A stretch of 64,000 bases of DNA from a virus (taxonomy: Duplodnaviria; Heunggongvirae; Uroviricota; Caudoviricetes). The stretch lies in IMG/VR virus record IMGVR_UViG_2909314774_000001; one strand, written 5' to 3'. Below, in pieces: positions 11,027 through 50,968 of the stretch. A model generated the notes under the pieces. The model was not told the DNA's origin and ran no database searches. It saw only the letters and a list, made by a program, of their open reading frames with translations. The position numbers were made by a program, and so were the translations under genes. Numbering within the stretch: position 1 is the stretch's first letter; each line of letters begins with the position of its first letter.

Positions 11027-11107
11027 AAAATAAGCGTGGAGAACACCTCCACGCTTGATTCATTGGTGAAACAACTTTTCTTTTGCCAAACCACAAAAGA
11101 AAAACAC

Positions 11108-13196: not shown

Positions 13197-13679
13197 ATGG
13201 CGGTAGTTGTGAAAGCTGATTTGTCAAAAATCCCTTCTATTTCAGGAAATAACGGTTATTCACTTCGTTGTGAGGAAGTAAAGATAAACGGTGAGTCGGC
13301 ATATTGCAGCTATTCCGTTTGCCAGCACACCATTCTTGCCTTCAAAGAAAACCGTCTTCCTCGAACTTCTTTCCAGTCGTGCGCAACCGCTATCAAAGAA
13401 GGCAAATGCAAGGCGTTAAAAATGATGGTTGAAGAGATTCGTAAAGGAGAATCTCTGTATTTCGAAGATATGACCGCGCTCATTAAGGAGGTTGAAGAAC
13501 GGAATAAACAAGCCAGAACTATAAAACGAAAACGTGACAGTGTAACGATTAATAGCATGGTTAAGAAGAGCACCACATCACAAACAGCGATCACTGACGT
13601 GTATGCGGCGTTGCTTGAAGAAACAACAAAAGAAACACATGAGCAAATCGATCAACATATGGAGGCAAAACAACAATGA
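13197..13679 (+). CDS. Hypothetical protein
   Basis: 160-codon ORF with a Cys cluster; overlaps the ligase start (ATGA). Confidence 0.45.
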   Translation: MAVVVKADLSKIPSISGNNGYSLRCEEVKINGESAYCSYSVCQHTILAFKENRLPRTSFQSCATAIKEGKCKALKMMVEEIRKGESLYFEDMTALIKEVEERNKQARTIKRKRDSVTINSMVKKSTTSQTAITDVYAALLEETTKETHEQIDQHMEAKQQ

Positions 13680-14998
13680 AAAAGTTGATCGCACTTAAGC
13701 ATAAGCTGGACGAAATGAAAGCTATGGGAACCAATGCAAAAAAAGAGGCATTGGCCAACATGGATGACTTCGAGCAAAGCATGGTTTCATTGATGCTCAA
13801 CCCTTTCATCCGTTTTGGGGTAAAGAAATACAAAGTGGCAGAGCCGCTTAGTGAGTCCGTCCCAAGTGACGAAAAAGCCATTGATATACTGAATAAGCTG
13901 GCCTCTCGCGAGCTGACGGGGAACGCAGCAATAGCTGCTGTTGAGTCTATCGTGGCGTCAATGTGCGCCGATGGGCAGGACGTGTTCCGTCGTTTCCTCT
14001 TAAAAGATCCGAAAGCTGGCGTTGGGATTAGCCTATGCAACAAGGTTTTTGAAAATCCCATTCCGAAATTTGAGGTGCAGCTGGCGTCACCGTATAAAGA
14101 AAAAGGCGACAAATACCCCTTCAAGCCAAATCCTAAAGCCAAATGGCCGATGATTGGCAGCCTTAAGCTCGATGGTTTGCGAGTAATTTGTGAGGTTATT
14201 GTTGACGAGGAAGAGGTGAACTTCCTTTCTCGTACTGGTAATCCAATCACGTCTCTCGATCACCTAAAGCCAGCCATGCTCGAATTAGGCAAACTTTCAG
14301 GCCACAAACACATCTTCTTCGATGGTGAAGGAACAGCCGGTTCATTTAACCAGTCCGTATCTGCATTGCGCAAAAAGAACGTGCAGGCAATTGGCGCTAT
14401 TTATCATGTTTTCGACTTCTTCCTACCGGAATGGCGGGCACAGGCTAAATCCAAAGAGTATGCAAAGACAGGTATGAAGCTGAAAGAGCGCCTGGCTATT
14501 CTCGTGGCGTTGTTCAAAAACGATCGCAGTGAAGACTACGCGCAAGACATTCACCTACATCCGTTCTACATCATCCATAGCCACGAAGACTTCATCGAAC
14601 GCTTCATGAAACGCCTGGACGATAACGAAGAAGGGGAGATGGGCAAAGATCCGAACTCTGTTTACGAGTTTAAACGTACCCGCAGCTGGTGGAAGTTAAA
14701 AGACGAAGATTCAGAAGATGGTGAAATTATCGACTTTGAGCCTGGCGACCCGGACTCTGGTTTTGCCAACACGCTTGGAAAAATTGTTATTCGTCTTGAA
14801 AACGGCGTCATCGTTCGTGCGAGTGGCATTAAGCATAAATATCTGGACGAGATCTGGAACAACAAAGAGAAGTACCGTGGTCGTATTGTCGAGGTTCATT
14901 GTCACGAGAAAACACCTGATGGCAGCTTACGCCACCCACGACTGAAATGGCCGCGTTGCTTACGCGATACCGAAGATCGAATCGGAGATAAAGAATGA
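13676..14998 (+). CDS. ATP-dependent DNA ligase
   Basis: Adenylation motif I KLDG (GSLKLDGLRVICEV) and later ligase motifs. Confidence 0.8.
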   Translation: MKKLIALKHKLDEMKAMGTNAKKEALANMDDFEQSMVSLMLNPFIRFGVKKYKVAEPLSESVPSDEKAIDILNKLASRELTGNAAIAAVESIVASMCADGQDVFRRFLLKDPKAGVGISLCNKVFENPIPKFEVQLASPYKEKGDKYPFKPNPKAKWPMIGSLKLDGLRVICEVIVDEEEVNFLSRTGNPITSLDHLKPAMLELGKLSGHKHIFFDGEGTAGSFNQSVSALRKKNVQAIGAIYHVFDFFLPEWRAQAKSKEYAKTGMKLKERLAILVALFKNDRSEDYAQDIHLHPFYIIHSHEDFIERFMKRLDDNEEGEMGKDPNSVYEFKRTRSWWKLKDEDSEDGEIIDFEPGDPDSGFANTLGKIVIRLENGVIVRASGIKHKYLDEIWNNKEKYRGRIVEVHCHEKTPDGSLRHPRLKWPRCLRDTEDRIGDKE

Positions 14999-16424: not shown

Positions 16425-16499
16425 GATGGTGTAGCTCAGCGGTAGAGCAGTTGGCTGTTAACCAACTGGTCGGTGGTTCGAATCCACCCACCATCGCCA
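16425..16499 (+). tRNA. tRNA-Asn (anticodon GTT)
   Basis: Hand-folded cloverleaf: acceptor GATGGTG/CACCATC, anticodon loop CTGTTAA, T-loop GGTTCGAATCC, 3' CCA encoded. Confidence 0.85.
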
Positions 16500-16504
16500 A
16501 TTTA

Positions 16505-16591
16505 GGGGAGTTAGTCCGTAGGGGCAGCGGGGTAGACTGTAAATCTACTGTCATTGCGACTCGGGTGGTTCGACTCCATCACTCCCCACCA
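16505..16591 (+). tRNA. tRNA-Tyr (anticodon GTA), class II with long variable arm; D-arm non-canonical
   Basis: Acceptor GGGGAGT/ACTCCCC, anticodon arm GTAGA-CTGTAAA-TCTAC, T-loop TTCGACT, CCA encoded; the D-arm would not fold canonically by hand. Confidence 0.6.
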
Positions 16592-16595
16592 AATT

Positions 16596-16671
16596 GCCGG
16601 TTTAGCTCAGTTGGTAGAGCGCCTGCCTTGTAAGCAGGATGTCAGCGGTTCGATCCCGTTAACCGGCACCA
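16596..16671 (+). tRNA. tRNA-Thr (anticodon TGT)
   Basis: Acceptor GCCGGTT/AACCGGC, D-arm GCTCAGTTGGTAGAGC, anticodon loop CTTGTAA, T-loop TTCGATC, CCA encoded. Confidence 0.85.
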
Positions 16672-16762
16672 ACACAACAGGTAAGAGCATTGGGCGAATC
16701 GGCGATACTGACCACAAGCCCGTAAATCGATAGAGTCAGACCAGTGCTCTTACCGTTGTGAG
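16672..16762. repeat. Long imperfect hairpin C (candidate structured RNA)
   Basis: Arms CAACAGGTAAGAGCATTGG / CCAGTGCTCTTACCGTTG, ~47 nt loop; begins right after tRNA-Thr. Confidence 0.5.
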
Positions 16763-16807
16763 GAAGTGCAGCTCTTTGAAGCAACCAGAAGATAAGCATC
16801 TGGCTTC

Positions 16808-16892
16808 ACAACACAACGATAAGATCATTACGGTTAATCGTCGTTCATGTGCACAATGACTGGTCGAAAGGTAGTGATCTTACCGTTGTGAT
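16808..16892. repeat. Long imperfect hairpin D (candidate structured RNA)
   Basis: Arms CAACGATAAGATCA / TGATCTTACCGTTG, ~48 nt loop. Confidence 0.5.
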
Positions 16893-16990
16893 GAATGCAC
16901 AGGCTGATGTGCCGCAACTACAGTAGTGCGCGCTTTGCGGGGCTTGCTACAACCCTGTGTCGGAGTTCAGCACCGACCATCACAATAGCT

Positions 16991-17074
16991 GGAGAGTAGG
17001 GAGCATGGTGCTCAAGCGGTCTTGAAATCCGTCCCATTGTGCAAACGATGATGGTTCGATTCCATTACTCTCCG
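16991..17074 (+). tRNA. tRNA-Ser (anticodon TGA), class II; D-arm and anticodon stem imperfect
   Basis: Acceptor GGAGAGT/ACTCTCC with discriminator G and CCA; anticodon loop CTTGAAA; T-loop TTCGATT; long variable arm. Confidence 0.55.
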
Positions 17075-17075
17075 C

Positions 17076-17157
17076 CAGACACAGCGTTGAGCGGTTTGGC
17101 CTTTTAATCAACCAGATTAAGACTCCGCTAACATAAACCAGACCGCTCAACGCTGTG
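17076..17157. repeat. Long imperfect hairpin E (candidate structured RNA)
   Basis: Arms ACAGCGTTGAGCGGTTTGG / CCAGACCGCTCAACGCTGT, ~38 nt loop; directly after tRNA-Ser. Confidence 0.5.
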
Positions 17158-17269: not shown

Positions 17270-18532
17270 TTACTTTGCATAGTCGCCCAATTTTAATATT
17301 TCGCGCTTATATTCATTAACCATGCTACTGGATTCAGTATAAATTCGATTTAAAAGATTATCGTTATCTTTATTTTCATTTATCTTAATTAGTGCTAATT
17401 TATATTCATAGTCATCAAATGCCACAATTAAATGGTGGCCTGGGATTATATCTTCGTCACTCTTAAAGTATATATCTTCAAGTATGTAATCTAGTTGATT
17501 AGATTTTCTTTTCTCGATGTAATCTTCAGCCATAGCTATTACATCATTCCTGTCATTTAACCTGTTTTTTTCGGAAGGCACATCTTCGTAATGTTGCACG
17601 ATTGAACAACCAATAAGGCGTGGGATGTAAACGTCAAAATGAGTAACTCTATCATTCGCGGTTTTAAGTAGTTCCTCAAAGTAGTTTCTTACATGTAAAG
17701 GCAACTTCTCAAAGTAATCATTAATTATAGGAGAACAAGGAGTTTTATAATTCATAAGAACCGACGGTACGAGCTTTGGGTGTCGAAACATCCAGTCCCT
17801 TTTAACGTCCGATGGAACATAATAACTTTTAATGATATTATCAAAATAATTTATCATTCGAGATTTGAATATTTTGTTGAATCTAAGGTTTATGAATGTA
17901 TCCAGATAAGGCATATTTGAATAAGCATCATCAAAAAATATTTCATCATTGAAAAAATCATATTTATTCAATAAACAACACAGTTTTTCCGAATTAATAT
18001 GTTCACAATAATCGATTTTTAATCCAAAGATAGCAATGATCAACTTCATCTGAGGTGGGATTTTAAAAATTAATTGTGACACATACGCTCTTTTTTCCTT
18101 GAGACATTCCCCATCAATATAAAATGAACCATCCACATACTCAAATATATTAATAATATGCTTCACATACTGTATTACCTCATGCTGTCTTACCAATGGG
18201 TAATATAGTCTATGTAACTCATCGCTGTTTAAATTAATTTTGTGTTTATCGATAATTTGTTTTGCAAGAAGACATAACTCATCATGTTGATTTAATAAGG
18301 AATCAAACCATTGTTTAAATGCACTCTTTCGCATTTCGAACAATGATTCAGTTGTTAATTGAAGGGCTGAAAAAGCTGCTTTTGCACTTTTTCTCGCTTC
18401 GTAGGCATTCCATGCTGTTGCTATAAAAGCAAATGCTGTAGCCAATGTTCCAACAGTTTGACCATTTAAAACAACCCAATCCCAAAAAATGACGGTGAGC
18501 AGTAGTATAATAATGAAAATTAAAAAAGGCAT
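17270..18532 (-). CDS. Membrane-anchored protein of unknown function (420 aa), AT-rich island
   Basis: N-terminal hydrophobic helices (FLIFIIILLLTVIFWDWVVL; TLATAFAFIATAW) then a large Asn/Tyr/Lys/Phe-rich soluble domain; base composition far more AT-rich than flanking genes. Confidence 0.6.
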   Translation of the reverse strand: MPFLIFIIILLLTVIFWDWVVLNGQTVGTLATAFAFIATAWNAYEARKSAKAAFSALQLTTESLFEMRKSAFKQWFDSLLNQHDELCLLAKQIIDKHKINLNSDELHRLYYPLVRQHEVIQYVKHIINIFEYVDGSFYIDGECLKEKRAYVSQLIFKIPPQMKLIIAIFGLKIDYCEHINSEKLCCLLNKYDFFNDEIFFDDAYSNMPYLDTFINLRFNKIFKSRMINYFDNIIKSYYVPSDVKRDWMFRHPKLVPSVLMNYKTPCSPIINDYFEKLPLHVRNYFEELLKTANDRVTHFDVYIPRLIGCSIVQHYEDVPSEKNRLNDRNDVIAMAEDYIEKRKSNQLDYILEDIYFKSDEDIIPGHHLIVAFDDYEYKLALIKINENKDNDNLLNRIYTESSSMVNEYKREILKLGDYAK

Positions 18533-19163: not shown

Positions 19164-20267
19164 ATGAAAAATAGCTTTGACAGAGCACGCGCTGCGGAGA
19201 ACACCTCAAAAGAGGCGATAGAGTATCTCGAAAGAGCATCTCAAATGCAGGCCGTTATGATCTCCCAGGTCAGCAATGACATGAGATTCTCGGACGCATT
19301 CATGTTATTCACTCGCTTATCTCTGCTGATAACCAGACGTCGGCCAGAGATCGCTGTTCATTGTATTTTGATACATGTTTTGCCGCACATTGCCGATGTA
19401 AAAGTAAGTGACATTAATAGGTTCATGGTGAACCAACTGGTCAACCCACTAATACTGGATGGCAAAATTGTTATGGGCCGCCGCGTTTTCTCTCTGATGA
19501 AGCAGTTCCTTAGCTGGTGCGCCTTCCAGGGGATGATAGACGTGTCACCGTTAAACGATATGTCACTTAACAAAGTTGCCGGTGGCGCAAAGCCCACACC
19601 TCGCGAGCGGAAGCTGACCGACGCAGAGGTATGGGTGTTCTGGAATATATGGGACTACTTCAATGTGTGTGCTGGTACAAAATGGGCGGCCAGGCTATGT
19701 CTTGTATCCGCAAGACGACCTGACGAAGTACTGCGGGCTAAAAAAAGTGAGTTCAATCTTAAGCGTGGGGTTTGGAATCAAGGCAAGAGGAACAAATCTG
19801 CCCGTGAGCATTCTCTGCCTTTAAGCTCATTAATGCGCACTTGTATTGAAGAGTTGTTCGAATATGGTAAAGACAGCCAGTGGCTCGTGCCTTCGAATAA
19901 AAAAATCGGGAAAGACCTTCCTATGTCTAAAGTGGCAATAGCCCAGGCATTACGTCGTATTCTGGAACGACCAGAACTGATGGAGCTTGAGCCATTTACA
20001 CCCCGAGATTTGCGCCGTACTGCGCGTAGTTACTTCCCAGCATTAGGCATAAGCCAGGAGGTATCACGTAAAATCATGAACCACAGTCTTGAGGGGATAG
20101 ATCGGGTCTACGACCGGCACGATTATATGGACGAGATGCGAGACGCCTTAGAAAGTTTCTCGACGTACATCGCATCAATCGTAGAGCAACCGGATTTAGA
20201 CGAAATTGACCACAAATTTAAGGGAGATCGTCTATCAACAGAGCTTATTCGTGTAAATTTTTCATAG
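19164..20267 (+). CDS. Tyrosine recombinase (phage-integrase family) lacking an N-terminal arm-binding domain
   Basis: Core-binding and catalytic domains with R...H..R...Y-type segments (LVSARRPDEV..., ...RDLRRTARSYF..., HSLEGIDRVYDRHDY); nothing upstream resembles an arm-binding domain. Confidence 0.7.
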   Translation: MKNSFDRARAAENTSKEAIEYLERASQMQAVMISQVSNDMRFSDAFMLFTRLSLLITRRRPEIAVHCILIHVLPHIADVKVSDINRFMVNQLVNPLILDGKIVMGRRVFSLMKQFLSWCAFQGMIDVSPLNDMSLNKVAGGAKPTPRERKLTDAEVWVFWNIWDYFNVCAGTKWAARLCLVSARRPDEVLRAKKSEFNLKRGVWNQGKRNKSAREHSLPLSSLMRTCIEELFEYGKDSQWLVPSNKKIGKDLPMSKVAIAQALRRILERPELMELEPFTPRDLRRTARSYFPALGISQEVSRKIMNHSLEGIDRVYDRHDYMDEMRDALESFSTYIASIVEQPDLDEIDHKFKGDRLSTELIRVNFS

Positions 20268-20648
20268 AGACTTTATGGCCTCAACAACCTTTTGTGATGC
20301 GCCTTTCTCTTTACCGAATCGCTCGTTATATGCAGCAAGAACCTGTTTTTCGTCCTCGTTAAGAGGAGCAGTGCCTTCTTTGTATAAAAATGCTGCGAGT
20401 TCGGGTTGGCGTTCTTCCAGCACCATCATCATAAGACGACTTGGCTCAATACCCAGTGCCAGCGCCAGCGGACGAACCTTATCGATAGGCAAAGGAATTT
20501 TGCCGCTTTTAATTAAAGAAAGGTTGTTGGCGTTTTTATACCCAATTGTTTTGGCTATCTGGGCCTGGCTCATAGGTGAGGATTCAATCAACCCTGCGAT
20601 AAAAGCAGCGTAGCGACTTTCTATAAATTCAATCTTGTTATCAGACAT
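20262..20648 (-). CDS. XRE-family helix-turn-helix transcriptional regulator
   Basis: HTH segment SQAQIAKTIGYKNANNLSLIKSGK; divergent from the downstream + strand genes; its promoter region carries a GGTAAGTGCTTACC palindrome. Confidence 0.7.
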   Translation of the reverse strand: MSDNKIEFIESRYAAFIAGLIESSPMSQAQIAKTIGYKNANNLSLIKSGKIPLPIDKVRPLALALGIEPSRLMMMVLEERQPELAAFLYKEGTAPLNEDEKQVLAAYNERFGKEKGASQKVVEAIKSL

Positions 20649-20899: not shown

Positions 20900-21112
20900 A
20901 TGAACACCACTATTTCCAGCCTAATCGCTCTTGAGATCGGACACGTACAGAAATTAGCTGATGAGTGTGTAGCTGACATCCTCACCGATCTACCGAATGA
21001 GCAGATTCAGGTTGGTGTGAATGACACAACTGGATTTATATTCGAACTTAACAACAAACGCTTCACGCTTCTCAATACCGGCTCCGGGTCTTTAGCCGTC
21101 AGAATCTGTTAA
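20900..21112 (+). CDS. Hypothetical protein
   Basis: 70-codon ORF downstream of an AT-rich divergent promoter region. Confidence 0.4.
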   Translation: MNTTISSLIALEIGHVQKLADECVADILTDLPNEQIQVGVNDTTGFIFELNNKRFTLLNTGSGSLAVRIC

Positions 21113-21210: not shown

Positions 21211-23319
21211 ATGTCTAAAAAACGTTCCATCAAAGAGGTTCAGGACTTCCGTGACAGTGTAAAACGAGTAGTCGCTCTCCTTTCAGGTAAAAACATCCCT
21301 GTTGCAGAACGAGGGGACGACGCTTATGTACGCTATAACGATGATGGAGAGCCAATTCTCGTAAACATCCCATCAATCCCGGATAACGCAACACCGGCAT
21401 TGATGAATGCTGTGCGCGGATTTCTCGATCATGAGGTTGCTCACATTTTGTTTACCGATATTCGTGTGTCCAACAAAATGAGAGAAAAAGGACGCGTTCC
21501 TTCCTGGTCGCTATGGAATGCCTTAGAAGACGTGTTCATCGAGCGAAAAATGGGTCAGGTCTTTAACGGAACAAGACGTAATCTGATGGCAACTCAGCGC
21601 CTTATAATCGAAAAAGTCTTTAAACCAAAGGCTTCAGAGGCTATTGCTTATTGTGGCAAAGATCAGCGCGCGCTTTTTCTAAACTTCTTTCTCTGTCCGG
21701 TTGTAAGAGCCTGGGATGGCCAAGCACCGTTCGTAGATTTCATGGATGAATATTGGCCTGTCATTGAGAAACCAATTTCATTATTAAAAGAACATGGTAT
21801 CGATGTGGCCGTGCGTAACATGTCTTGCACCGAGGATTGTGTAAAGGTGGCTGCGACCATAGCTAAGATCCTCAAAGACACTGAAAGTGAAAGCAAAGGT
21901 AAGGAGTCAGCTCCGGGAAAAACTTCCGATCCTTCAGACGCTGACCAGACGGATGCCTCTGGAGAAAACAATGAAGACAACGAAGATCATGAGACACCCT
22001 CATCGTTAGATAATCACAAATCTATTAAATCAGAGTCACATAGTAAGCACAAACATGATAATAACGACAGTGATGATTCAGATAATCCTGAATCATCAGA
22101 AACAATATTCGATGATACAGAAAATGATAAAGCGGTATCAGATTCTGATGCTTCTGATAACGCGGCGTCAGAATCATTAACCGCTGACCACGAAAAAAGA
22201 AAAACGACAGAAGACGGCTCTTCAGACATTCCAACTCCGTCAAAAATGAGTCTGGAAGAGGCTTTAGAGGAGTTGGATAGCATGGAAGATGAAGTCGGAG
22301 GCATGACAGAAGATGCGCTATCCGAAACGATTAAAAGCGAGTTAACAGAAAGCTCGAAAAGCGAATACAGGCCATACAATCGCTCATACGACTTCATCGG
22401 CTCGATTGATCAGGCAGAAGCCCATATCAAACGGCTTATTAAAACATTCTCCGATATTGATTTAGGTGGATATCCAATCAGCCGTTATCGCATCGTTCCT
22501 GAAGGCAACCAACTCTTCGACAAATATATTGAAAAGCACCTTTCGTCAGGTGTTTCGTCGACGCTGGCAAAAGACCTGGAACGTGCAATAGCAAGCAGAA
22601 ACAGAGTTCAGTTTATACCTGGCCAGCGTCGGGGGCGCATTCATGGTTCAAGTATCTACAGATTAACAATGAATGATGATCGCGTGTTTCGTAAAAAAGA
22701 AGAATCTAAAGCCGTTAACGCCTGTGTTCAACAAGTGATTGATTTATCGGGTTCAATGAGTGGCGAAACGATAAAACTAGCTCTTGCAAGTGCATATACC
22801 ATCGCCGATGCACTTGATCGAATAAATGTTCCCAACATTATCACCGGCTTCACTACATTTGGCAGTCATATGGCAGCAGGAGAACTTAAGGCTATCAAAT
22901 ATGAGTTCTCTCGCTTTGAATCTTTAATGCTACCTATCATCAAAAATTGGAATGAAAAAGCAAATTCTCGCGAAGTTCGCTCACGTATGGGGTGCGTAGG
23001 CTACACATTCCCACTTCTTAATAACGTGGATGGTGAAAGCATAGCCAGCCTTGCATCGTTATTTTCCGGTCGCTTGGAGGACAGGAAGATCATGCTTGTT
23101 CTGAGCGATGGCGCGCCGTGGGCTGTTGGGAGAGGTTTTGACGCCCATTTGCGTTCGGTTACGAAGCAAATTGAAACGCAGACTGACATTGATTTGATGG
23201 CAATTGGCATCATGACTGATGCACCGGAGAGATTTTACGCAAATCATGCCCTGGTAACTAGTGTTGATAGTCTTGGTTCATCTGTAGTTACTGAACTATC
23301 TCGTATCATTTTGAAGTAA
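21211..23319 (+). CDS. von Willebrand factor A domain protein (CobT-like) with long acidic Ser/Asp-rich disordered insert
   Basis: MIDAS motif DLSGSMSG in the C-terminal half; central ~110 residue low-complexity acidic segment. Confidence 0.65.
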   Translation: MSKKRSIKEVQDFRDSVKRVVALLSGKNIPVAERGDDAYVRYNDDGEPILVNIPSIPDNATPALMNAVRGFLDHEVAHILFTDIRVSNKMREKGRVPSWSLWNALEDVFIERKMGQVFNGTRRNLMATQRLIIEKVFKPKASEAIAYCGKDQRALFLNFFLCPVVRAWDGQAPFVDFMDEYWPVIEKPISLLKEHGIDVAVRNMSCTEDCVKVAATIAKILKDTESESKGKESAPGKTSDPSDADQTDASGENNEDNEDHETPSSLDNHKSIKSESHSKHKHDNNDSDDSDNPESSETIFDDTENDKAVSDSDASDNAASESLTADHEKRKTTEDGSSDIPTPSKMSLEEALEELDSMEDEVGGMTEDALSETIKSELTESSKSEYRPYNRSYDFIGSIDQAEAHIKRLIKTFSDIDLGGYPISRYRIVPEGNQLFDKYIEKHLSSGVSSTLAKDLERAIASRNRVQFIPGQRRGRIHGSSIYRLTMNDDRVFRKKEESKAVNACVQQVIDLSGSMSGETIKLALASAYTIADALDRINVPNIITGFTTFGSHMAAGELKAIKYEFSRFESLMLPIIKNWNEKANSREVRSRMGCVGYTFPLLNNVDGESIASLASLFSGRLEDRKIMLVLSDGAPWAVGRGFDAHLRSVTKQIETQTDIDLMAIGIMTDAPERFYANHALVTSVDSLGSSVVTELSRIILK

Positions 23320-23414
23320 TTAAAACAGCCTTAATGATAAGTAACTACTTACCATAGTTAATGGTATATTTATATAAGAACTTGAACGCTCATTAGAGAA
23401 CAAAGGAAAAGCGC

Positions 23415-24650
23415 ATGACTACTACTGCACTGCAAAATGATAAAAATCCTTCTGATTACCTTGTTTGCAAGTGGTGCGGCAAATCATTTCACTATTTTAA
23501 GTCCCATGTAGCCAATGGTAATTGCGAGGGCATTCCTGAGTCAGTAAAAGATGCCGATCCTGACACCGTACTGAAAATGTACACAACGCAGTTTCCAGAT
23601 GAACCAACGCTATCGAAAAAGGCACTTGATGCAATTCAAGCTAAACGTGCCGAGCAAAAAAGCGAAATGGCGAAATCTTCTGGCTTGACCAGTAGCCCAG
23701 GCTACACAGGCACAGTTGAGTACAAGACAGATCTGGTCGCAGCTCACGAACTGCTAAACGTAACGGTGGAAGAACTCGGAACAAAACGTGGGACGCCGCT
23801 CATGGTTAGCGTCAACGTCAATACGCCGTATCCAGAGTTCGTTCCAGAAGTGAAGAAGGGCTACGTATATGGCGACTTCGAACTGATCAAAGATATTTTC
23901 ATGATGCTTGAACTTGGCATACCTGGCTATTTGTGGGGTCATGCAGGAACAGGCAAATCGTCATTGCCTACACAGCTATGTGCTTTGCTCAATCGTCCGT
24001 TGATCCGTGCCCAACATACAGCATCAATGGAAGAGGCACATGTTACGGGGCAAATTCTGGCGCGTGATGGCTCTACGTATTTCGAGCCTGGCTTGCTTGC
24101 GCTCGCAATGAAGCATGGCTGGGTTTACCTCGCGGATGAATACGACTTTGCGTTTCCACAAATTCTTGGCGTGTATCAGCCAGTGCTGGAAGGTGAGGCG
24201 TTGGTCATCAAAGAGGCAACTCCAGAATGGCGTCGCATTACTCCGCATGAACGGTTTGCTTTCATTGGCACTGGCAACACAAACGGTTCTGGTGATGAAA
24301 CCGGCTTGTACCAGGGTACAAACATCCAGAACGCCGCGAACTTTTCACGTTTTGGCATCGTTTCGAATGTGAAATACATGAGCAAAGAGGCAGAGATCAA
24401 CATGTTGATAAATGCCGGCATCGTGGATGAATACGCTGAAAAGATGGTTAAGTTTGCCGGTATCGTTCGCGATGGATATGAAGAACACCTTATCAGCCAG
24501 CCAATTGGGCCTCGTGAGCTTTTGTTGTCGGCCAAGATTGGAATGATGCGAGGCGACTTTGTGACAGGTATTGAGCGTTCTTTCATTAACAAACTCCCTT
24601 CAGCTTCTGCGCAAGCGGCTCGTGAAGTTGTTCAAAAAATATTTGGTTAA
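23415..24650 (+). CDS. AAA+ ATPase (CobS/MoxR-like)
   Basis: Walker A GHAGTGKSS and Walker B VYLADEYD; adjacent to the VWA protein, the usual pairing. Confidence 0.7.
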   Translation: MTTTALQNDKNPSDYLVCKWCGKSFHYFKSHVANGNCEGIPESVKDADPDTVLKMYTTQFPDEPTLSKKALDAIQAKRAEQKSEMAKSSGLTSSPGYTGTVEYKTDLVAAHELLNVTVEELGTKRGTPLMVSVNVNTPYPEFVPEVKKGYVYGDFELIKDIFMMLELGIPGYLWGHAGTGKSSLPTQLCALLNRPLIRAQHTASMEEAHVTGQILARDGSTYFEPGLLALAMKHGWVYLADEYDFAFPQILGVYQPVLEGEALVIKEATPEWRRITPHERFAFIGTGNTNGSGDETGLYQGTNIQNAANFSRFGIVSNVKYMSKEAEINMLINAGIVDEYAEKMVKFAGIVRDGYEEHLISQPIGPRELLLSAKIGMMRGDFVTGIERSFINKLPSASAQAAREVVQKIFG

Positions 24651-24652
24651 TC

Positions 24653-24856
24653 GTGCGTAAAGGATGTTTCGGCTCTCTTATCGCTGCTTCTGAAACTGGC
24701 AAGGCTTGTCTGGGGTGTCCAGACAAGCCCGATTGTCACCAATCAGCAAAAGAAGTTGCGATTTCGATGTATGGGAAGTTCGTAGGCTTCCCCAATGACA
24801 AAATCAAAAAAACCAGAAAGGTAAAAACACATGAAGGCACTGATGGTTCGAACTGA
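24653..24856 (+). CDS. Small Cys-rich protein
   Basis: 67-codon ORF with C..C...C pattern; overlaps the start of the polymerase gene. Confidence 0.35.
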   Translation: MRKGCFGSLIAASETGKACLGCPDKPDCHQSAKEVAISMYGKFVGFPNDKIKKTRKVKTHEGTDGSN

Positions 24857-27800
24857 CTTCTCACTTGGGGAGTCGGCTCTAAAAGCAGAAAACGCGGTGA
24901 AGATTGCCAGAGAAGCTGGCTACACCGCTGTAATTTCAGCAGATAGCATGAATATTGCAAGTGTTATTCCACTACAACGTGCCGCTGGTGACGACATGGC
25001 GGTTATTTGTGGTGTGAAACTAAACATTGTTGATGATCCCACATACGAGCACCGGGCTAAACTTGCTAAAGAATCTATGAGATGTATGGAATCATTAGAG
25101 CGGGGACGTAACTACTCGTTTACCGCTCTAATTAAAAATGAGCAAGGATATCGCGACATCTGCGAACTAATGACGGCGGCCAACACACGAGAACAGTTCT
25201 ACTTTGTACCGCGTCTCTCGCTCGAACAGTTGGTTTCTACATATGCCAAAGGCAACATCATCCTGCTTACTTCCGACATCGGTAGCGTGTTCCAACGCAA
25301 CGATTTTGCAAAAATCATAAGCACACTGATTACAGCGGGTGGAAAAGACAACTTCTATAGTGTGGTTTATCCGCACCCTACCCCATTCTACGACCAGATT
25401 AACGTCCGGGCGATGAAAGTCGCCAGCGCATTGAAAATAGAGCCAGTGGCGTTCTATCCCGCTTATTACGAATCGATCGACGATGCAGACATTAAAGACA
25501 TTGCGCACATGGTTACGAACAACATCAAAATCGACCAGCCGCATCGTCTGCGTATCCCCCACCAGCGAGATAACGCCGTCAATGGTCGCCGCCATCTCCT
25601 TGAGGCGCTTAAAGCCTTCTCCGTTCGCATGGATGTGCCGGTAACAGCTGCAATGGCCTCAACAACGCAGGATACCATTATCGATGCCTGCACATGGCGC
25701 TGGCATGAATTGCCGCCAGCACTGCCAAAGATGGCAGACGACGAGCCTGCAACGCTTATGAAACTGGCTGTTGCAGGGCTGCGTAAACGTCTTACCACAA
25801 AAGAGTTTGGCTACACACCACCTGCTTCTGAGAACAGGGTTTATGTTGAGCGGCTAAAGTACGAAATGGACACGCTGACTCGCCTGGGATTTTGTGGTTA
25901 CTTCCTGATGGTACGCGATCTGATGAATCATAGTCGTGAAACTGGCATTCCCGTTGGGCCTGGTCGTGGTTCCTCTGCCGGTTCTCTGGTGGCGTGGTGC
26001 ATAGGCATAACCAACGTCGACCCAATCCGTCACGGTCTTCTGTTTGAGCGTTTCATCAACCCTGAGCGTCTCGACTTGCCGGATGCGGACTTGGACTTCA
26101 GCCAGGCACGTCGCCATGAGGTGATCGAGTATCTGAATGAACGCTACGGCGAAGATTACGTTGCGGGTATTCCGAACTTCACCTACCTGGGCGCAGCCTC
26201 TGCACTACGTGATACCGCTCGTATTTATGGTGTGGAGTCCGCAGATATGGCGGTATCAAAAGAACTGAAGAACGCTGAGGATGATAGCCTTCCATTGGAA
26301 GAACTGCGCGAACAACTGGCAAGTCTCGACAAATACGCAACAAAATATCCTGATGCATTCAATGCAGCCTGCAAGTTACAAAGCCTTATGCGTGGCTTTG
26401 GTAGACATGCGGCAGGGATGATCGTAGCAGGTGTTCCTCTGACAGAACGTACACCGGTTGAGCGCCGTGGTGACGCGCGTTGTATCGCATTTGACAAGCG
26501 TTACTGCGAGGCTATGGGCCTAATTAAGCTGGACGTGCTTGGCCTGGCAACTCTCGATTTGCTCGATAGTGCAAAACGCTACATAAAAGAGAACACAGGT
26601 GAAGATATCAATCTTGATGCCATTTCTCTTGAAGATCGCAAGGTGCTGGATGGTTTTGCTGCTGGGTACACTCAAGGTGTTTTCCAGCTTGAATCAGGCC
26701 CAATGCGCAAGCTGCTTAAAGATTTAGGTGGTGGAATTGAGCCAATGAGCTTTAAAACGGTCGTCGCTACAACTGCGCTCTTCCGGCCGGGGCCAATTCA
26801 ATCAGGCATGTTGGATGACTATGTTTCTGTCGCCAAAGGCTTTATGACGCCGGAATCATTACACCCCGTTCTTGATGAACTTACCGCGGAAACAAATGGC
26901 GTGATTCTCTATCAGGAACAGACGATGAACGCGACTCGATTGCTTGCCGGCTTCACAATGGCTGAAGCTGACGCTGTGCGTTCCGCAATCGGTAAGAAGA
27001 ACATGGAAAAAATGAAGAGCATGGGCGAGAAGTTCATCGTTCAGGCTCAAGCTGGCTGGATAGACGTTGAGCTGGAAGATGGCACTACACAGCGCATTCA
27101 CCGTGCGGAACATTTTAAATGCGAAGACGGAACTCTGAAAACTGTCGAAGAGGCACTTGAGCACGGCGCAAAACTACCTATAAACGCAGTACGCGTTACA
27201 GCGTCACATCCAGGGCTATCAGAGATGAAAGCGAAGGAGATCTGGACCGCATTTGAGAAAAACGGAGCCTATCAGTTCAATAAATCACACTCCGTTGCTT
27301 ATTCTTTAATCAGTTATCAGTCTATGTGGCTAAAGACGCACTACCCTGCTGAGTTCTTCGCAGCTGCGCTCACCATTCTGGGCGAGGATAAGCATCAGGG
27401 GCTGGTGAAGGATGCGCTGACCTATGGCATTCGCGTATTGCCACCAGACGTTAATGTGTCATCTAACCGAATTGAGATCCGCACACTCGAAGACGGCAGT
27501 CAGGCACTGTATGCGCCATTCTCTGCTGTGAAAGGCTGTTCTGAAAATGGTTGTCAGGCAATTATGCGTGCGCGTGAGAAAGTTGGTGGCAAATTCGAGT
27601 CAGTGGCACAATTCGATGAAGCGGTCGAGAAGCGTGCATGTAACAGTCGTGTACGCGAGTCGCTTCATAAAGTAGGGGCTTTTGCGTCAATTGAGCCAGG
27701 CAGTCTTCCAGCAACTGATCCTGAACGACTGCGCGACCAGGCTGAGCTGATGGGCAATCTCATCATTGACGCTGTTAAAGCATCACGTCCGTTCGAAATG

Positions 27801-28349
27801 AATCCTAAGCGTTCTGCCGAAATCAACGTACTCATGACACGTATGGCGGCTGAAATGGGCTTGGGTGAGGAGTTGATACGCCCGACTATTGGTATTAAAC
27901 CCAAAATCATGATCATTCTGGACAATGCGAACGGCAATGACGCTCGTACCGGCTACTTCATGGAGAACGGATACGACGACTTTAAGGCAAAACTACTGAC
28001 AGTTGGAGATCTGCGCATGGGCGATCTTTATGTCACGGGTGTTTGTAAGAAGGTTAAGGACAAAGAGAAAGACTATACCAAAGACGAGATAGGCCAGTTC
28101 ACAGACTTTATGCGGGAAGAAATTAATCTTGTACGACCAACCTACATTTTGACGTGTGGTAGTCGTTCAACCGCACTATTTAACAATAAGAGTAAACCAT
28201 CAGATCTGATTGGTCGTAAGGAGTACTTCCCAGAGCTTGATGCAACCGTCTTCTACGGATTTAACCCGAATATCCTGTACTTCCGACCGGAAGAAGGAGA
28301 GCGACTGGAGGCCATTCTGGCTGATATCGCGGAGACAATAAATAAGTAA
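24831..28349 (+). CDS. DnaE-type DNA polymerase III alpha-like replicative polymerase with extra C-terminal domain
   Basis: PHP N-terminal domain and Pol III alpha core motifs (GFCGYF..., GPGRGSSAGSLVAW..., LLFERFINPER..DAD.DF); C-terminal ~170 residues are not part of the canonical core. Confidence 0.85.
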   Translation: MKALMVRTDFSLGESALKAENAVKIAREAGYTAVISADSMNIASVIPLQRAAGDDMAVICGVKLNIVDDPTYEHRAKLAKESMRCMESLERGRNYSFTALIKNEQGYRDICELMTAANTREQFYFVPRLSLEQLVSTYAKGNIILLTSDIGSVFQRNDFAKIISTLITAGGKDNFYSVVYPHPTPFYDQINVRAMKVASALKIEPVAFYPAYYESIDDADIKDIAHMVTNNIKIDQPHRLRIPHQRDNAVNGRRHLLEALKAFSVRMDVPVTAAMASTTQDTIIDACTWRWHELPPALPKMADDEPATLMKLAVAGLRKRLTTKEFGYTPPASENRVYVERLKYEMDTLTRLGFCGYFLMVRDLMNHSRETGIPVGPGRGSSAGSLVAWCIGITNVDPIRHGLLFERFINPERLDLPDADLDFSQARRHEVIEYLNERYGEDYVAGIPNFTYLGAASALRDTARIYGVESADMAVSKELKNAEDDSLPLEELREQLASLDKYATKYPDAFNAACKLQSLMRGFGRHAAGMIVAGVPLTERTPVERRGDARCIAFDKRYCEAMGLIKLDVLGLATLDLLDSAKRYIKENTGEDINLDAISLEDRKVLDGFAAGYTQGVFQLESGPMRKLLKDLGGGIEPMSFKTVVATTALFRPGPIQSGMLDDYVSVAKGFMTPESLHPVLDELTAETNGVILYQEQTMNATRLLAGFTMAEADAVRSAIGKKNMEKMKSMGEKFIVQAQAGWIDVELEDGTTQRIHRAEHFKCEDGTLKTVEEALEHGAKLPINAVRVTASHPGLSEMKAKEIWTAFEKNGAYQFNKSHSVAYSLISYQSMWLKTHYPAEFFAAALTILGEDKHQGLVKDALTYGIRVLPPDVNVSSNRIEIRTLEDGSQALYAPFSAVKGCSENGCQAIMRAREKVGGKFESVAQFDEAVEKRACNSRVRESLHKVGAFASIEPGSLPATDPERLRDQAELMGNLIIDAVKASRPFEMNPKRSAEINVLMTRMAAEMGLGEELIRPTIGIKPKIMIILDNANGNDARTGYFMENGYDDFKAKLLTVGDLRMGDLYVTGVCKKVKDKEKDYTKDEIGQFTDFMREEINLVRPTYILTCGSRSTALFNNKSKPSDLIGRKEYFPELDATVFYGFNPNILYFRPEEGERLEAILADIAETINK

Positions 28350-31878: not shown

Positions 31879-31893
31879 TCCCATTACGTGACC

Positions 31894-31923
31894 AGTAAGG
31901 CGTCTACGGACGCCTTACTTTTT
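31894..31923 (+). terminator. Intrinsic terminator
   Basis: AGTAAGGCGTC-TACG-GACGCCTTACT followed by TTTTT; lies inside the ORF-track extension of the next gene. Confidence 0.6.
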
Positions 31924-31938
31924 GGAAGGAATGTACCG

Positions 31939-32883
31939 GTGAATTATCTCTTCGTAGATGGCAATAGCCTGGGTTATTACCACCAACAATCTGACAAATT
32001 GCACAACGGCGAAATGGAAGTACAGGCTGCTTTCGGCTTTGTTAAGAACGTCCGTCGTTATGCCTCCATCCTCCATGCCCGACCTATGATTCTTTGGGAT
32101 GGATTTAGTGACAAGCGTCGCGACTTTTACCCGGACTACAAAGCAAATCGCGACGACGATCCTGATATGAAAAAGATGAAGGAAGGCTTTGCTATCCAGA
32201 AGCCATACATCCTCAAAATGATGACCGCGCTTGGAGTTACCCAACTCATTGCAAAAGATGCAGAAGCGGATGATCTGGCCGGGCTGCTGGTATCCCGCAT
32301 GGCACCGCAGCCAACCGTTGAACACATCTATCTGTTAACAGGCGATAGCGACTGGCTTCAGTTAGTTCGTGAAAACGTAAGCTGGGTAAGCCTGCGTGAA
32401 GACGCCAAAAACAAGCAGGTTAATTTTGAGCAATTTGCGGAGCTGACAGGATTCGCCACGCCTCGCGCATTTTTGGAAGCAAAAGCATTACAAGGCGATA
32501 ACTCGGACAACATTAGCGGTGTTGGTGGCATTGGTGCTGGCGGTGCGAAAGAGCTGCTGCATGAATGGGGAAGTGTCGCAACGATGGTACGCGGCATCAA
32601 CGACGGCTCAATCGTGGTTAATAAAGGGCGTCATAAGACCGCCTTCAACAAACTAGCGAAGAATGCCTTCAACGAGAAAACAGGCTGTCGAATGCTCGAA
32701 GCGTTCAAGAGAAACATCACGCTAATGAACCTGATTGAGACGAAGTTTCCGCCTACCGAAATCGAAACAATCAAAGGCAATCGTGACGTGAAAGCATTCG
32801 AGCAACTGTGCTACGAGCTGAATTTCCGTTCGTTCCTTGAAGACCTTGAAGTGTTTGTTCTTCCATTCGAAAGGTATTGCTAA
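31939..32883 (+). CDS. 5'-3' exonuclease / flap endonuclease (FEN)
   Basis: N-terminal nuclease motifs (LFVDGNSLGYY, ILWDGFSDKRRDFYP, LLTGDSDWLQL) and helix-3-turn-helix (GDNSDNISGVGGIG); start moved to GTG 31939 to exclude the terminator hairpin. Confidence 0.8.
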   Translation: MNYLFVDGNSLGYYHQQSDKLHNGEMEVQAAFGFVKNVRRYASILHARPMILWDGFSDKRRDFYPDYKANRDDDPDMKKMKEGFAIQKPYILKMMTALGVTQLIAKDAEADDLAGLLVSRMAPQPTVEHIYLLTGDSDWLQLVRENVSWVSLREDAKNKQVNFEQFAELTGFATPRAFLEAKALQGDNSDNISGVGGIGAGGAKELLHEWGSVATMVRGINDGSIVVNKGRHKTAFNKLAKNAFNEKTGCRMLEAFKRNITLMNLIETKFPPTEIETIKGNRDVKAFEQLCYELNFRSFLEDLEVFVLPFERYC

Positions 32884-33151: not shown

Positions 33152-34225
33152 ATGGCAAAAGGAAAATCCGCACTGGCACTTGCTCTGAAAAAGAAAATCG
33201 GTAGCAACGACGAAATTCAGAAAGTAACTCATTGGATTGATACAGGCTTTCCACCGTTAAACAAAGCTATTTCTGGTCGTTACGATGGCGGCTTCCCATG
33301 TGGTCGTATCGTCGAAGTATTCGGTCCTCCAAGTGCAGGGAAAACGTTCCTTGCAACAGCAGCGATGATCTCCGCTCAAAAACAAGATGGTCTGGCGGTA
33401 TTCCTCGATCATGAAAACAGTTTTGACGTTGGCCTGGCTGTAGCCAATGGCCTGAACGCAGATGAGGATGACGGTCAGTGGGTATACAAGCAGCCAGATA
33501 CCTTCGAAGACTCTGTAGAGTTGATCGGCACAATACTTAAATTGGTTCGTGATGAAGAGCTTATCCCCGAATCAGCACCTATCTGTATCGTGGCTGACTC
33601 TCTTGCGTCTATGGTTCCGAACTCCAAAGCCGAGAAGTTCGAAAAGATGGCTGAAGGCACTGCCAAAGACAAAGATCAGCTAAACATGAACGACAATACG
33701 GCACTGGCTCGTGCGACGAGTGCGAACTTCCCTACTCTGGCTTTGTGGGCACGCAAATACAACGCCTGCATCATCTTCTTGAATCAGGTTCGCACAAAAA
33801 TCGGTGTAATGTTTGGCGACCCTACTACGTCGCCAGGTGGAGATTCACCGAAGTTCTACGCTTCTGTACGTATCCGTCTTGGTGCATCGGTGATGAAGGA
33901 TGGTAAAGAGAAGATCGGCCAGGACGTAGGCGCAGAATGCATCAAAAACAAAGTTGCACCACCGTATGGCAAATGCACCTGGAAATTCTACTTCGATCCT
34001 ACTCGTGGCCTCGACGTTATCGAATCGCTCGTCGAGTACATGCTGGAAGAAGGATACCTGCCAAAGAACGCCAGCGGGCGAGTTGAAATTGGTGACAAGA
34101 AATACACCAAATCGCAGATCGTTGAGATGTATCGGGAGAAGCCACTGGCTGAAATCATTGCGGCTTTGCAGGCAATCGACGACCGAAGAGCAAAAGACAA
34201 CCCCACCGAGTCAGTAGAAGAGTAA
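33152..34225 (+). CDS. RecA-family recombinase
   Basis: Walker A GPPSAGKT and RecA-like core. Confidence 0.8.
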   Translation: MAKGKSALALALKKKIGSNDEIQKVTHWIDTGFPPLNKAISGRYDGGFPCGRIVEVFGPPSAGKTFLATAAMISAQKQDGLAVFLDHENSFDVGLAVANGLNADEDDGQWVYKQPDTFEDSVELIGTILKLVRDEELIPESAPICIVADSLASMVPNSKAEKFEKMAEGTAKDKDQLNMNDNTALARATSANFPTLALWARKYNACIIFLNQVRTKIGVMFGDPTTSPGGDSPKFYASVRIRLGASVMKDGKEKIGQDVGAECIKNKVAPPYGKCTWKFYFDPTRGLDVIESLVEYMLEEGYLPKNASGRVEIGDKKYTKSQIVEMYREKPLAEIIAALQAIDDRRAKDNPTESVEE

Positions 34226-50554: not shown

Positions 50555-50968
50555 ATGGCAAGAGGTATGTATGTCTTATGCGAAATTGAAGGTGTGCTGG
50601 CAAATGCCAGCCATCGTAAATCAGTATCTGACGCGGATGCAGGCCAGCTCATTGCCGGTGATGAACTCATTTTCCCCACCAGCCGTATGTTGCGTGGTTT
50701 TGCTCGCTCAGGGGCTGAAGTGGTGCTTATCAGTAGCCGCTCTGAAACTCTTGAAGCGCCCACTAAACGATGGCTGAAAGATTTTGGCGTTGATTACGAC
50801 TGGCTTCATCTCGTACCGAATAGCACCAGTTATGAGAAGCATATTAAGCGCACATTAGCGGAGCATAAAGGCGATCTGCTTATCGCTGCGCTGGTGCACG
50901 ATCCTCGACTCCGTGCCGCTTTAGCTGACTCTCATCATAGACCGGTCATCTATGAGGTGAGCAAATGA
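50555..50968 (+). CDS. Hypothetical protein
   Basis: 137-codon ORF between thyA and the DHFR gene. Confidence 0.4.
   Translation: MARGMYVLCEIEGVLANASHRKSVSDADAGQLIAGDELIFPTSRMLRGFARSGAEVVLISSRSETLEAPTKRWLKDFGVDYDWLHLVPNSTSYEKHIKRTLAEHKGDLLIAALVHDPRLRAALADSHHRPVIYEVSK

Follow-up and report, generated by a model that had tools for sequence, protein, structure and literature searches.

A CobT-like and CobS-like gene pair in the replication cluster of an SSU5-type phage-plasmid

Described AAA+/VWA motors

The gene pair analyzed here shares its adjacent AAA+ and VWA genes with the CobNST motor (PDB 9uka, 9ujv, 21vt, and 21vu; bioRxiv 10.64898/2026.07.21.739949). CobT of that motor has the same arrangement of an N-domain, an acidic linker, pre-VWA helices, and a VWA domain with five MIDAS residues, and the AAA+ core of CobS aligns with the phage CobS-like protein over about 270 residues. 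The linker of the solved CobT is disordered over ~90 residues, and the CobT_N fold has been described as peptidase M48C-like (bioRxiv 10.64898/2026.07.21.739949). Unlike its CobNST counterpart, the phage CobS-like protein has an extra N-terminal extension of ~100 residues, and the phage-plasmid pair lies without a CobN partner inside a phage replication cluster. The two systems also differ in that the phage CobT-like protein retains an HExxH motif where genuine CobT reads DSMALR, and the phage scores fall far under the equivalog cut-offs.

Mg-chelatase BchI/BchD (ChlI/ChlD) is a class I chelatase motor like the CobS/CobT pair. BchD/ChlD carries an acidic, proline-rich linker before its VWA/MIDAS domain, but its N-domain is AAA+-like rather than zincin-like. 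The BchH/ChlH partner is absent here, and the sequence searches that we made returned no match to BchI/BchD. NorQ-NorD, Rea1 (Midasin), and RavA-ViaA belong to the same class of MoxR AAA+/VWA-MIDAS pairs, with nitric oxide reductase, pre-60S ribosome factors, and respiratory complexes as their known clients. To our knowledge, the VWA partners in these three systems have no zincin-like N-domain.

Phages are known to encode such pairs as well. In group 2.2 jumbo phages, a MoxR-VWA pair includes a VWA protein that begins with a metallopeptidase-like domain, and we liken it to the present pair by this description. A role in virion assembly has been proposed for the jumbo-phage pair, with tail development in Acidianus two-tailed virus (ATV) cited as a MoxR-VWA precedent (Iyer et al. 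2021, PMC7824862), whereas the pair described here is embedded in a replication cluster. In Salmonella phage SSU5, the orthologues SSU5_049 and SSU5_050 are annotated as “putative porphyrin biosynthetic proteins,” and SSU5-like phage-plasmids carry counterparts. The gene order in SSU5 is the same (cobT, cobS, small ORF, dnaE); the region is 80% identical in DNA, and the folded CobT domains are about 73-75% identical. The difference is confined to the linker, which spans 190 aa in SSU5 versus 110 aa here, with 20% identity between the two. The family is already known, and the literature that we searched contained no experimental or functional study of any phage CobS/CobT.

The gene pair and its element

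We analyzed a 64,000-nucleotide stretch of viral DNA (IMG/VR record IMGVR_UViG_2909314774_000001), referred to here as the window, with a focus on positions 21211-24650. DNA comparison with plasmids and phages identifies the window as an SSU5-type phage-plasmid, with near-identical DNA present on circular plasmids and phages of ~110 kb that carry structural, partition, and replication genes. Known E. coli plasmids such as pSCU-306-2, which also carries tail, capsid, terminase, and ParB genes, match the 21211-24650 stretch at 100% identity. Phages Cyrano, PhiR41_1, and CMS-2020a match the region at 95-97% DNA identity. Of 5426 complete E. coli genomes, 218 carry the stretch (95-100% DNA identity), and every one of the 227 matching places lies on a plasmid. 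More broadly, the ORF pair is widely retained in enterobacterial elements, with one 90%-identity protein cluster containing 3307 members. For the window itself there is nothing new, as its genes are identical to deposited and annotated ones; this is an ordinary, long-annotated CobT-like/CobS-like ATPase pair of the replication cluster of SSU5-type E. coli phage-plasmids. The features of the locus are as follows.

20262..20648, minus strand: HTH transcriptional regulator (Pfam HTH_19), divergent from the cobT-like transcription unit
20900..21112, plus strand: 70-aa ORF 5' of the CobT-like gene (phrog_2627, E 9e-41, full length)
21211..23319, plus strand: CobT-like protein, 702 aa, with a zincin-like N-domain, an acidic disordered linker, a helical “shaft” region, and a VWA/MIDAS domain
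21211..21900, plus strand: N-domain, aa 1-230, CobT_N homologue (Pfam CobT, E 1.8e-21 for the isolated N-domain)
21901..22230, plus strand: acidic Ser/Asp/Glu-rich disordered linker, aa 231-340 (pLDDT below 50)
22231..23319, plus strand: C-terminal region, aa 341-702, helices followed by the VWA domain
23415..24650, plus strand: CobS-like MoxR-class AAA+ ATPase, 411 aa (AAA_5, E 2e-15; phrog_249, E 2e-106)
24653..24856, plus strand: 67-aa Cys-rich ORF that follows the CobS-like gene and overlaps the start of dnaE (phrog_6337, E 3e-46)
24831..28349, plus strand: DnaE, DNA polymerase III alpha subunit (Pfam DNA_pol3_alpha, finger, HHH_6, and PHP domains)

The 70-aa ORF is labelled as a hypothetical protein in pSCU-306-2, and the 67-aa ORF corresponds to SSU5_051 in the phage SSU5 annotation. 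A first-pass annotation had delineated the same two large ORFs and read them as an AAA+/VWA-MIDAS pair, and Pfam, PHROG, and PDB CobS matches agree on their homology to CobS/CobT. The CobT-like ORF matches Pfam CobT at aa 9-292 (E 3e-27), CobT_C at aa 492-701 (E 6e-83), and phrog_1576 over its full length, and its relatives fall into 5063 representative clusters at E<=0.001. An AlphaFold2 model built from a 46-sequence alignment has a mean pLDDT of 79.8; an earlier model from 15 close relatives (mean pLDDT 38) was discarded. Sequence and model together give the complete CobT architecture: the N-domain, a disordered acidic linker, helices preceding the VWA domain, and a VWA domain with an intact MIDAS site. 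The MIDAS motif DLSGSMSG noted previously lies at aa 511-518 (DNA 22741-22764). All five MIDAS residues (D511, S513, S515, N605, and D633) are conserved in 147 of 147 relatives and align to D422, S424, S426, N518, and D546 of the solved CobT. The domain has the fold of ring-binding MIDAS domains, and its gene is adjacent to that of the ATPase. Whole-model fold searches returned VWA matches only, with no match to a zincin fold.

The CobS-like protein has an AAA_5/MoxR-type core with intact Walker A (GHAGTGKSS, DNA 23937-23963) and Walker B (LADEYD, DNA 24129-24146) motifs. Among 24 relatives, conservation of G175, G178, G180, K181, D241, and E242 reaches 90% or more. In a PDB profile search, aa 142-411 align to residues 39-315 of the CobS chain in 9ujv (E 2e-25), and Midasin, CbbQ, and NorQ are also matched. 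The N-terminal extension carries a finger-like C-x2-C-x4-H-x4-H motif at aa 18-31 (DNA 23466-23507), and this finger varies by lineage. A 13-bit FtrD-like match, obtained when the N-domain and the CobS N-terminal extension were searched against Pfam at E<=10, was rejected. The CobS-like gene of Xenorhabdus hominickii has an intein in its P-loop, which is consistent with an important gene but does not show it to be one.

Linker, N-domain, and the question of cobalamin

The only long segment of the CobT-like model with pLDDT below 50 is aa 231-340, in agreement with the acidic disordered linker of about 110 residues described earlier. It contains 33 D+E, 29 S+T, 10 K+R, and 7 bulky hydrophobic residues, compared to 14% D+E and 34% hydrophobic residues in the rest of the protein. 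The linker does lie N-terminal to the MIDAS motif, but not directly ahead of it, as ~170 structured residues (aa 341-510), modelled as helices and a strand preceding the VWA sheet, intervene. Nor is it unusually long, as had been suggested: the family median is 147 aa, and 74% of 146 full-length representatives exceed 110 aa. The median D+E fraction in the same representatives is 0.39 versus 0.29 here, and the linker of genuine cobaltochelatase CobT is likewise Ser/Asp/Glu-rich in sequence. An acidic linker is therefore typical of the CobT family as a whole, shorter here than in most relatives, and is uninformative about any departure from CobT. Linkers range from 95 to 199 aa, and those of the SSU5 group share 10-22% identity with the present one. 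We rejected the reading of a relic gene because the folded domains flanking the linker are kept at 73-75% identity while the linker drifts. The linker DNA is not a repeat array, since its only tandem repeat is a 9-nt unit of 2.6 copies.

The N-domain contains an intact HExxH motif (H74-E75-V-A-H78, DNA 21430-21444), which 143 of 147 relatives retain. Neither this motif nor the linkage to dnaE described below was mentioned in the first-pass annotation. The related-locus search, which returned nothing but close relatives when run with a single protein, chose HExxH as the most conserved stretch, and the motif is invariant in an alignment (A5) that includes the unrelated podophage ICP2. Other conserved N-domain residues are N103, E106, D107, and E111; E106 is kept in 146 and E111 in all of the 147 relatives, and both fall within a modelled helix (aa 96-117). 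In the AlphaFold2 model, HEVAH is located on a helix (aa 62-81) that follows a first helix and then strands at aa 31-34, 39-42, and 48-53, and motif and model together thus place HExxH on a helix after a small beta-sheet, as in zincins. PHROG family phrog_459, labelled “peptidase,” matches aa 72-128 (E 8e-8). CobT was the sole Pfam match to the N-domain at E<=10, with no peptidase family among the results, and a PDB profile search with the N-domain alone found no peptidase. PDB matches to XaxA and AcrIIA26 in the N-domain (19 bits) were judged to be chance or too weak. Since the N-domain retains the zincin HExxH...E signature, the machine may bind metal at this site and cleave a client. HExxH is missing in 4 of the 147 relatives and is replaced by DSEISK in Pseudomonas phage nickie, indicating that proteolysis is not indispensable to the family.

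The suggestion that the pair is not a cobalamin enzyme is reasonable given the absence of CobN from the element, the missed equivalog cut-offs, and the replication-cluster location. No CobN is found among the 135 annotated features of pSCU-306-2, which carries an identical copy of the pair, and the sole ORF above 1000 aa in the window is DnaE. NCBIfam scores are 69.1 bits against the CobT equivalog TIGR01651 (cut-off 759.05) and 84.9 bits against the CobS equivalog TIGR01650 (cut-off 558.55), so both cut-offs are missed about tenfold. The ribonucleotide reductase of the element is of class Ia, which is not B12-dependent. De novo B12 synthesis in E. coli requires heterologous cobN/S/T, and Salmonella uses an anaerobic route (PMC6249242), yet the pair is widely kept in enterobacterial elements. 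All of this, together with the absence of an intact HExxH from genuine CobT, weighs against the proposal that the two proteins are true auxiliary cobaltochelatase subunits, joining a host CobN to boost cobalamin synthesis during infection. What speaks for that proposal is the clear CobS/CobT homology, including the shaft, MIDAS site, and acidic linker, and the presence of relatives in phages of Rhizobium and Pseudomonas, hosts that possess the aerobic cobalamin pathway. Hijacking of host CobN has also been proposed (Liu et al. 2021, PMC8651126), and an auxiliary role of this kind has been suggested for cyanophages and haloarchaeal viruses. We regard auxiliary subunits as quite improbable, and the pair probably does not work as a cobaltochelatase in this setting.

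Replication-cluster setting and possible clients

The pair lies 5' of dnaE in a cluster that encodes helicase, primase, ligase, CobT, CobS, DnaE, a gp32-like SSB, a 5'-3' exonuclease, and RecA. We examined related genome loci with enough sequence (23 loci from several phyla, with 26-60% CobT identity) and found dnaE within 6 kb 3' of the CobT-like gene in 21 of them; the cobT-cobS-dnaE order persists down to 26-40% CobT identity. Most related loci also have a homologue of the HTH regulator just 5' of the CobT-like gene. A viral-contig alignment search covered the closest 80 loci, and the distant context comes from genome contigs and annotated phages. Pseudomonas phage nickie also shows synteny with dnaE and replication genes, and in ICP2, cobT-cobS is found just 5' of primase, helicase, and a family A polymerase. 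Based on gene spacing and strand, the pair is probably co-transcribed with dnaE; our scan detected no terminator-like site on the plus strand between cobT and dnaE, and promoter and terminator counts showed no excess over shuffles. The shared gene order may reflect the common descent of one phage lineage and not functional coupling.

This setting bears on two further explanations. The pair could be a virion assembly chaperone and protease that helps assemble or process structural proteins, as in the jumbo-phage proposal and its ATV precedent (PMC7824862). ATV ORF892 does appear among the structural matches (rank 36), and HExxH would suit a processing role. However, the genes sit among replication genes, and more than 15 kb separates them from the structural genes of the element; this placement is conserved in distant relatives and ICP2. 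We thus consider virion assembly unlikely.

Alternatively, the pair could serve in anti-defence or host takeover, remodelling or degrading a protein of host immunity or housekeeping, in line with the anti-host role raised by the first-pass annotation. This would fit the early or replication location and the design of the pair as a machine that targets proteins and may carry a protease head; the lineage-variable CobS finger and the fast-evolving linker would also be compatible with an arms race. But we found no support for it: defence-system models (PADLOC) gave no match to the CobS-like protein or the two small ORFs, and a DrmE match to the CobT-like protein (E 6.8e-4, 16 bits) was rejected as not credible. 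There is no likeness to known defence or anti-defence proteins; the 19-bit AcrIIA26 match covers ~50 residues, and the structured domains are highly conserved across the SSU5 group rather than diversifying. The same CobT/CobS pair occurs in hosts of many phyla, which favors a generic over a host-specific target. An anti-host module accordingly seems a poor prospect.

The pair is most likely a MoxR-type AAA+/VWA-MIDAS protein remodeller, possibly a proteolytic one. More specifically, we favor, at a probability of roughly 55%, a phage-type CobS/CobT motor whose client is not CobN, which possibly binds metal or is proteolytic, and which is part of the replication or early cluster. Judging from the homologous CobST and NorQD complexes, whose structures are solved, the CobS-like protein would assemble as a hexameric MoxR-class AAA+ ring. 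If the solved CobST is a guide to the later steps, the N-domain of the CobT-like protein would dock on the ring, and the helical segment preceding the VWA domain would enter the ring pore. The MIDAS site would thereby be offered to a client protein and grip one of its acidic residues, and ATP hydrolysis would drive the remodelling of the client. In the E. coli phage-plasmid, this client would not be CobN, so that the pair would not make cobalamin. The HExxH...E site, which is lost in genuine CobT, may bind metal and cut the client, which is most likely a protein of phage or host origin required at the replication or early stage. A bolder version, which we put forward only tentatively and think rather doubtful, is that the phage-type CobS/CobT is an AAA+-driven, MIDAS-targeted metalloprotease and the active ancestor of the pseudo-peptidase cobaltochelatase motor. 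SSU5-type phage-plasmids and other phages would then require it for replication, through its remodelling or cleavage of a host protein or one associated with the replisome.

Few “auxiliary metabolic genes” annotated in phages are as widespread as the CobS/CobT-like genes, which virome surveys routinely count as cobalamin genes. CobT-like clusters span phages of enterobacteria, vibrios, rhizobia, and actinobacteria, as well as haloarchaeal viruses. Taken with the new CobST structures, an HExxH motif that is intact in the phage type but lost in genuine CobT provides a concrete and testable hypothesis. If the pair is indeed a replication-tied protein remodeller or protease, then the cobalamin inferences drawn from these genes would be wrong for many phages.

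The CobT-like and CobS-like gene pair

The first-pass annotation described a CobT-like VWA protein paired with a CobS-like AAA+ ATPase. This observation is confirmed, as both ORFs are present with family matches in Pfam and PHROG, on one strand and separated by 95 bp. The MIDAS motif of the CobT-like protein, DLSGSMSG, occupies aa 511-518. Its gene is preceded by a 70-aa ORF, a divergent HTH regulator, and a tyrosine integrase.

Gene pair and neighbors in the window (replication-gene neighbors identified by Pfam)
9686-11026, DnaB-like helicase
11036-12286, primase
13676-14998, ATP-dependent ligase
21211-23319, + strand, CobT-like protein, 702 aa; Pfam CobT at aa 9-292, CobT_C at aa 492-701; phrog_1576 end to end
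~21510-21630, weak AcrIIA26 match of the family profile (CobT-like aa ~100-140)
23415-24650, + strand, CobS-like protein, 411 aa; AAA_5 and phrog_249 matches
24653-24856, Cys-rich ORF, 67 aa, 3' of the CobS-like gene, overlapping the dnaE start
24831-28349, DnaE, 1172 aa
30850-31878, gp32-like SSB
31888-32883, 5'-3' exonuclease
33152-34225, RecA

Circular E. coli plasmids of ~110 kb, among them pSCU-306-2, match positions 21211-24650 at 100% identity; the stretch is present in 218 of the 5426 complete E. coli genomes, with every match on a plasmid. Escherichia phages Cyrano, PhiR41_1, and CMS-2020a match at 95-97% identity and Salmonella phage SSU5 at 80%. Together, these matches identify the window as an SSU5-type phage-plasmid. 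The SSU5 annotation, in place since 2012, lists both genes as “putative porphyrin biosynthetic proteins,” the RefSeq names are “cobaltochelatase CobT-related protein” and “AAA family ATPase,” and the 90%-identity protein cluster holds 3307 member sequences. The pair is very common, long annotated, and identical to deposited sequences, and nothing in the present copy is new. More broadly, a representative search returned 5063 clusters at E<=0.001, and full-length matches in a viral structure library include uncultured Caudovirales, Gordonia phages, haloarchaeal tailed viruses, Thermus phage P74-26, and ATV ORF892. The Cyrano record (OV696614.1) labels the pair “dimethylbenzimidazole phosphoribosyltransferase” and “cobalamin synthetase,” labels that seem to confuse the Salmonella CobT/CobS enzymes with the unrelated Pseudomonas-type chelatase subunits of the same names.

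Acidic linker and N-domain motif

An AlphaFold2 model of the CobT-like protein, computed from an alignment of 46 diverse relatives (mean pLDDT, 79.8; pTM, 0.73), contains a single long low-confidence segment at aa 231-340. Its 110 residues comprise 33 D+E, 29 S+T, and just 7 bulky hydrophobics, in agreement with the ~110-residue acidic disordered insert described earlier. The same description called the insert unusually long, which does not hold. The linker of the solved cobaltochelatase CobT, “of ~90 residues” and disordered in all structures (bioRxiv 10.64898/2026.07.21.739949), is also Ser/Asp/Glu-rich in the aligned sequence. Among 146 full-length representatives, each at most 59% identical to the query, the median length of the corresponding segment is 147 residues, and 74% have a longer one than the window copy. 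The median D+E fraction is 0.39 versus 0.29, so that the window linker is among the shorter and less acidic of the family. Identity to the SSU5 group is 73-75% in the folded N- and C-terminal parts but just 10-22% in the linker, whose length ranges from 95 to 199 residues. The proposed check of linker length and conservation among homologs thus shows conservation of composition and disorder, but not of sequence or length. The linker is N-terminal to the MIDAS motif, as originally stated, but not adjacent to it: ~170 structured residues intervene, whose counterpart is the helical “shaft” and first strand of the solved CobT_C.

The first-pass annotation lacked both the dnaE linkage and an HExxH motif in the N-domain, H74-E75-V-A-H78 (21430-21444), which is retained in 143 of 147 aligned relatives. 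The preceding G70 and D73 and the following E111 are invariant (147/147), E106 is present in 146, N103 and D107 are also conserved, and GF[LIV]DHEV[AG]H was picked in the related-locus search as the family's single most conserved stretch. The model places the motif in a helix (aa 62-81) after one helix and three short strands, with E106 and E111 in a later helix, a predicted order of elements that matches the expectation for a zincin. The unrelated Vibrio podophage ICP2 retains HECYH, and Pseudomonas phage nickie no longer has the motif, with DSEISK in its place. Solved cobaltochelatase CobT differs from the CobT-like protein in carrying RGLGD-SMALR here, DSMALR replacing HEVAH, so that both His residues and the Glu are missing. 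The authors of that structure liken CobT_N to the peptidase M48C fold (bioRxiv 10.64898/2026.07.21.739949), and a jumbo-phage MoxR-vWA pair with an N-terminal metallopeptidase has been described (Iyer et al. 2021, PMC7824862). The PHROG “peptidase” family phrog_459 matches the HExxH region. For this putative peptidase fold, whole-model fold searches returned VWA matches only and sequence profile searches returned no peptidase match. A separate match of the N-domain family profile to the anti-CRISPR AcrIIA26 (PDB 9zq6_B; E 0.005, 19 bits), along an “N-x-V-E-D-x-F-I-E” helix, is weak and probably due to chance.

Relationship to cobaltochelatase

By sequence, the homology of the pair to CobS/CobT is real: the family profile matches PDB CobT at E 6e-62, PDB CobS is matched at E 2e-25, and all five MIDAS residues are conserved in 147/147 relatives. 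That the pair are true chelatase subunits has less support, and three observations speak against a cobaltochelatase role in this element. First, NCBIfam equivalog scores are 69 bits against a cut-off of 759 for CobT and 85 against 559 for CobS. Second, no CobN is annotated on the completely annotated pSCU-306-2, which carries an identical copy of the pair and whose ribonucleotide reductase is class Ia; DnaE is the only window ORF exceeding 1000 aa. Third, B12 synthesis in E. coli requires heterologous cobN, cobS, and cobT, and Salmonella uses the anaerobic route (PMC6249242). Viral CobST has been proposed to hijack host CobN (PMC8651126), but this cannot hold for the E. coli host, barring an unknown partner. 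The original interpretation is right in part, as the pair is probably no cobalamin enzyme here, and wrong in part, as the linker is not unusual.

In the CobS-like protein, the residues conserved in 24 relatives include Walker A (GHAGTGKSS, aa 175-183) and Walker B (LADEYD, aa 239-244), along with several more in the core. Compared to the 328-aa solved CobS, the protein carries ~100 additional N-terminal residues, opening with C18-x2-C21-x4-H26-x4-H31 (aa 18-31; 23466-23507), a pattern resembling a C2H2 finger. Most SSU5-lineage relatives and nickie share it, some alphaproteobacterial copies have Asp for the second Cys, and ICP2 lacks it. On a Xenorhabdus hominickii contig, the CobS-like gene (L087 10445-12754) encodes 769 aa, including a ~360-residue intein that contains a LAGLIDADG homing endonuclease domain, directly follows the Walker A lysine, and ends in HN then Thr; DnaE at this locus is divided between ORFs of 806 and 389 aa.

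Synteny with replication genes and predicted role

In 31 bacterial genome loci, an HTH regulator and then a small ORF precede the CobT-like and CobS-like genes, which are followed by one or two small ORFs and then by DnaE, SSB, and exonuclease. At 26-60% CobT identity, 21 of the 23 loci that extend far enough downstream retain this order. The hosts include alpha-, beta-, and gammaproteobacteria, Desulfosarcina, a cyanobacterium, and a Chloroflexi MAG. Gene order in nickie is identical, and in ICP2, which has a family A polymerase, cobT-cobS lies directly upstream of primase, helicase, and polymerase. A sequence scan of the + strand from cobT to dnaE found no terminator-like site, and the pair is probably expressed together with the replication genes.

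Several alpha- and betaproteobacterial relatives have one or two ORFs of ~180-260 aa between the CobS-like gene and dnaE, in place of the 67-aa Cys-rich ORF of enterobacterial elements; the first such ORF in Roseospira marina (L093 11260-11901) matches sigma-70 region 2. At the RecA position, pSCU-306-2 carries a gene of 2340 bp with a LAGLIDADG homing endonuclease annotation (L001 23941-26280), probably an intein-containing RecA; the RecA of the window (33152-34225) and of SSU5 is a plain 357-aa protein. Between ligase and integrase lies a cluster of four tRNA genes (Asn-GTT, Tyr-GTA, Thr-TGT, and Ser-TGA; 16425-17077), and tRNA-Asn is the sole tRNA annotated in the compared stretch of SSU5. 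A 420-aa ORF (17270-18532, - strand) with a hydrophobic N-terminus, no Pfam match, and lower surrounding G+C (about 0.41) may be accessory cargo; its counterpart stretch in pSCU-306-2 encodes two shorter hypothetical proteins. Adjoining thymidylate synthase and NrdAB, pSCU-306-2 also carries a dihydrofolate reductase that RefSeq labels trimethoprim-resistance dfrA51 (L004 20028-20504), to which a 158-aa window ORF (50965-51441) corresponds by position alone.

The best-supported reading is that the pair forms a MoxR-type AAA+ ring with a VWA-MIDAS adaptor that would remodel a client protein other than CobN. Ring assembly, pore insertion, and remodeling would proceed as in the solved CobST complex. 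The conserved motif suggests that the CobT-like adaptor could also act in proteolysis, its zincin head being possibly active. The structural genes of the element lie >15 kb from the pair, and a virion assembly chaperone is a less well supported role, as is the anti-defense module in line with the anti-host idea of the first-pass annotation. The interest lies solely in the function of phage CobS/CobT, rather than in the present copy.
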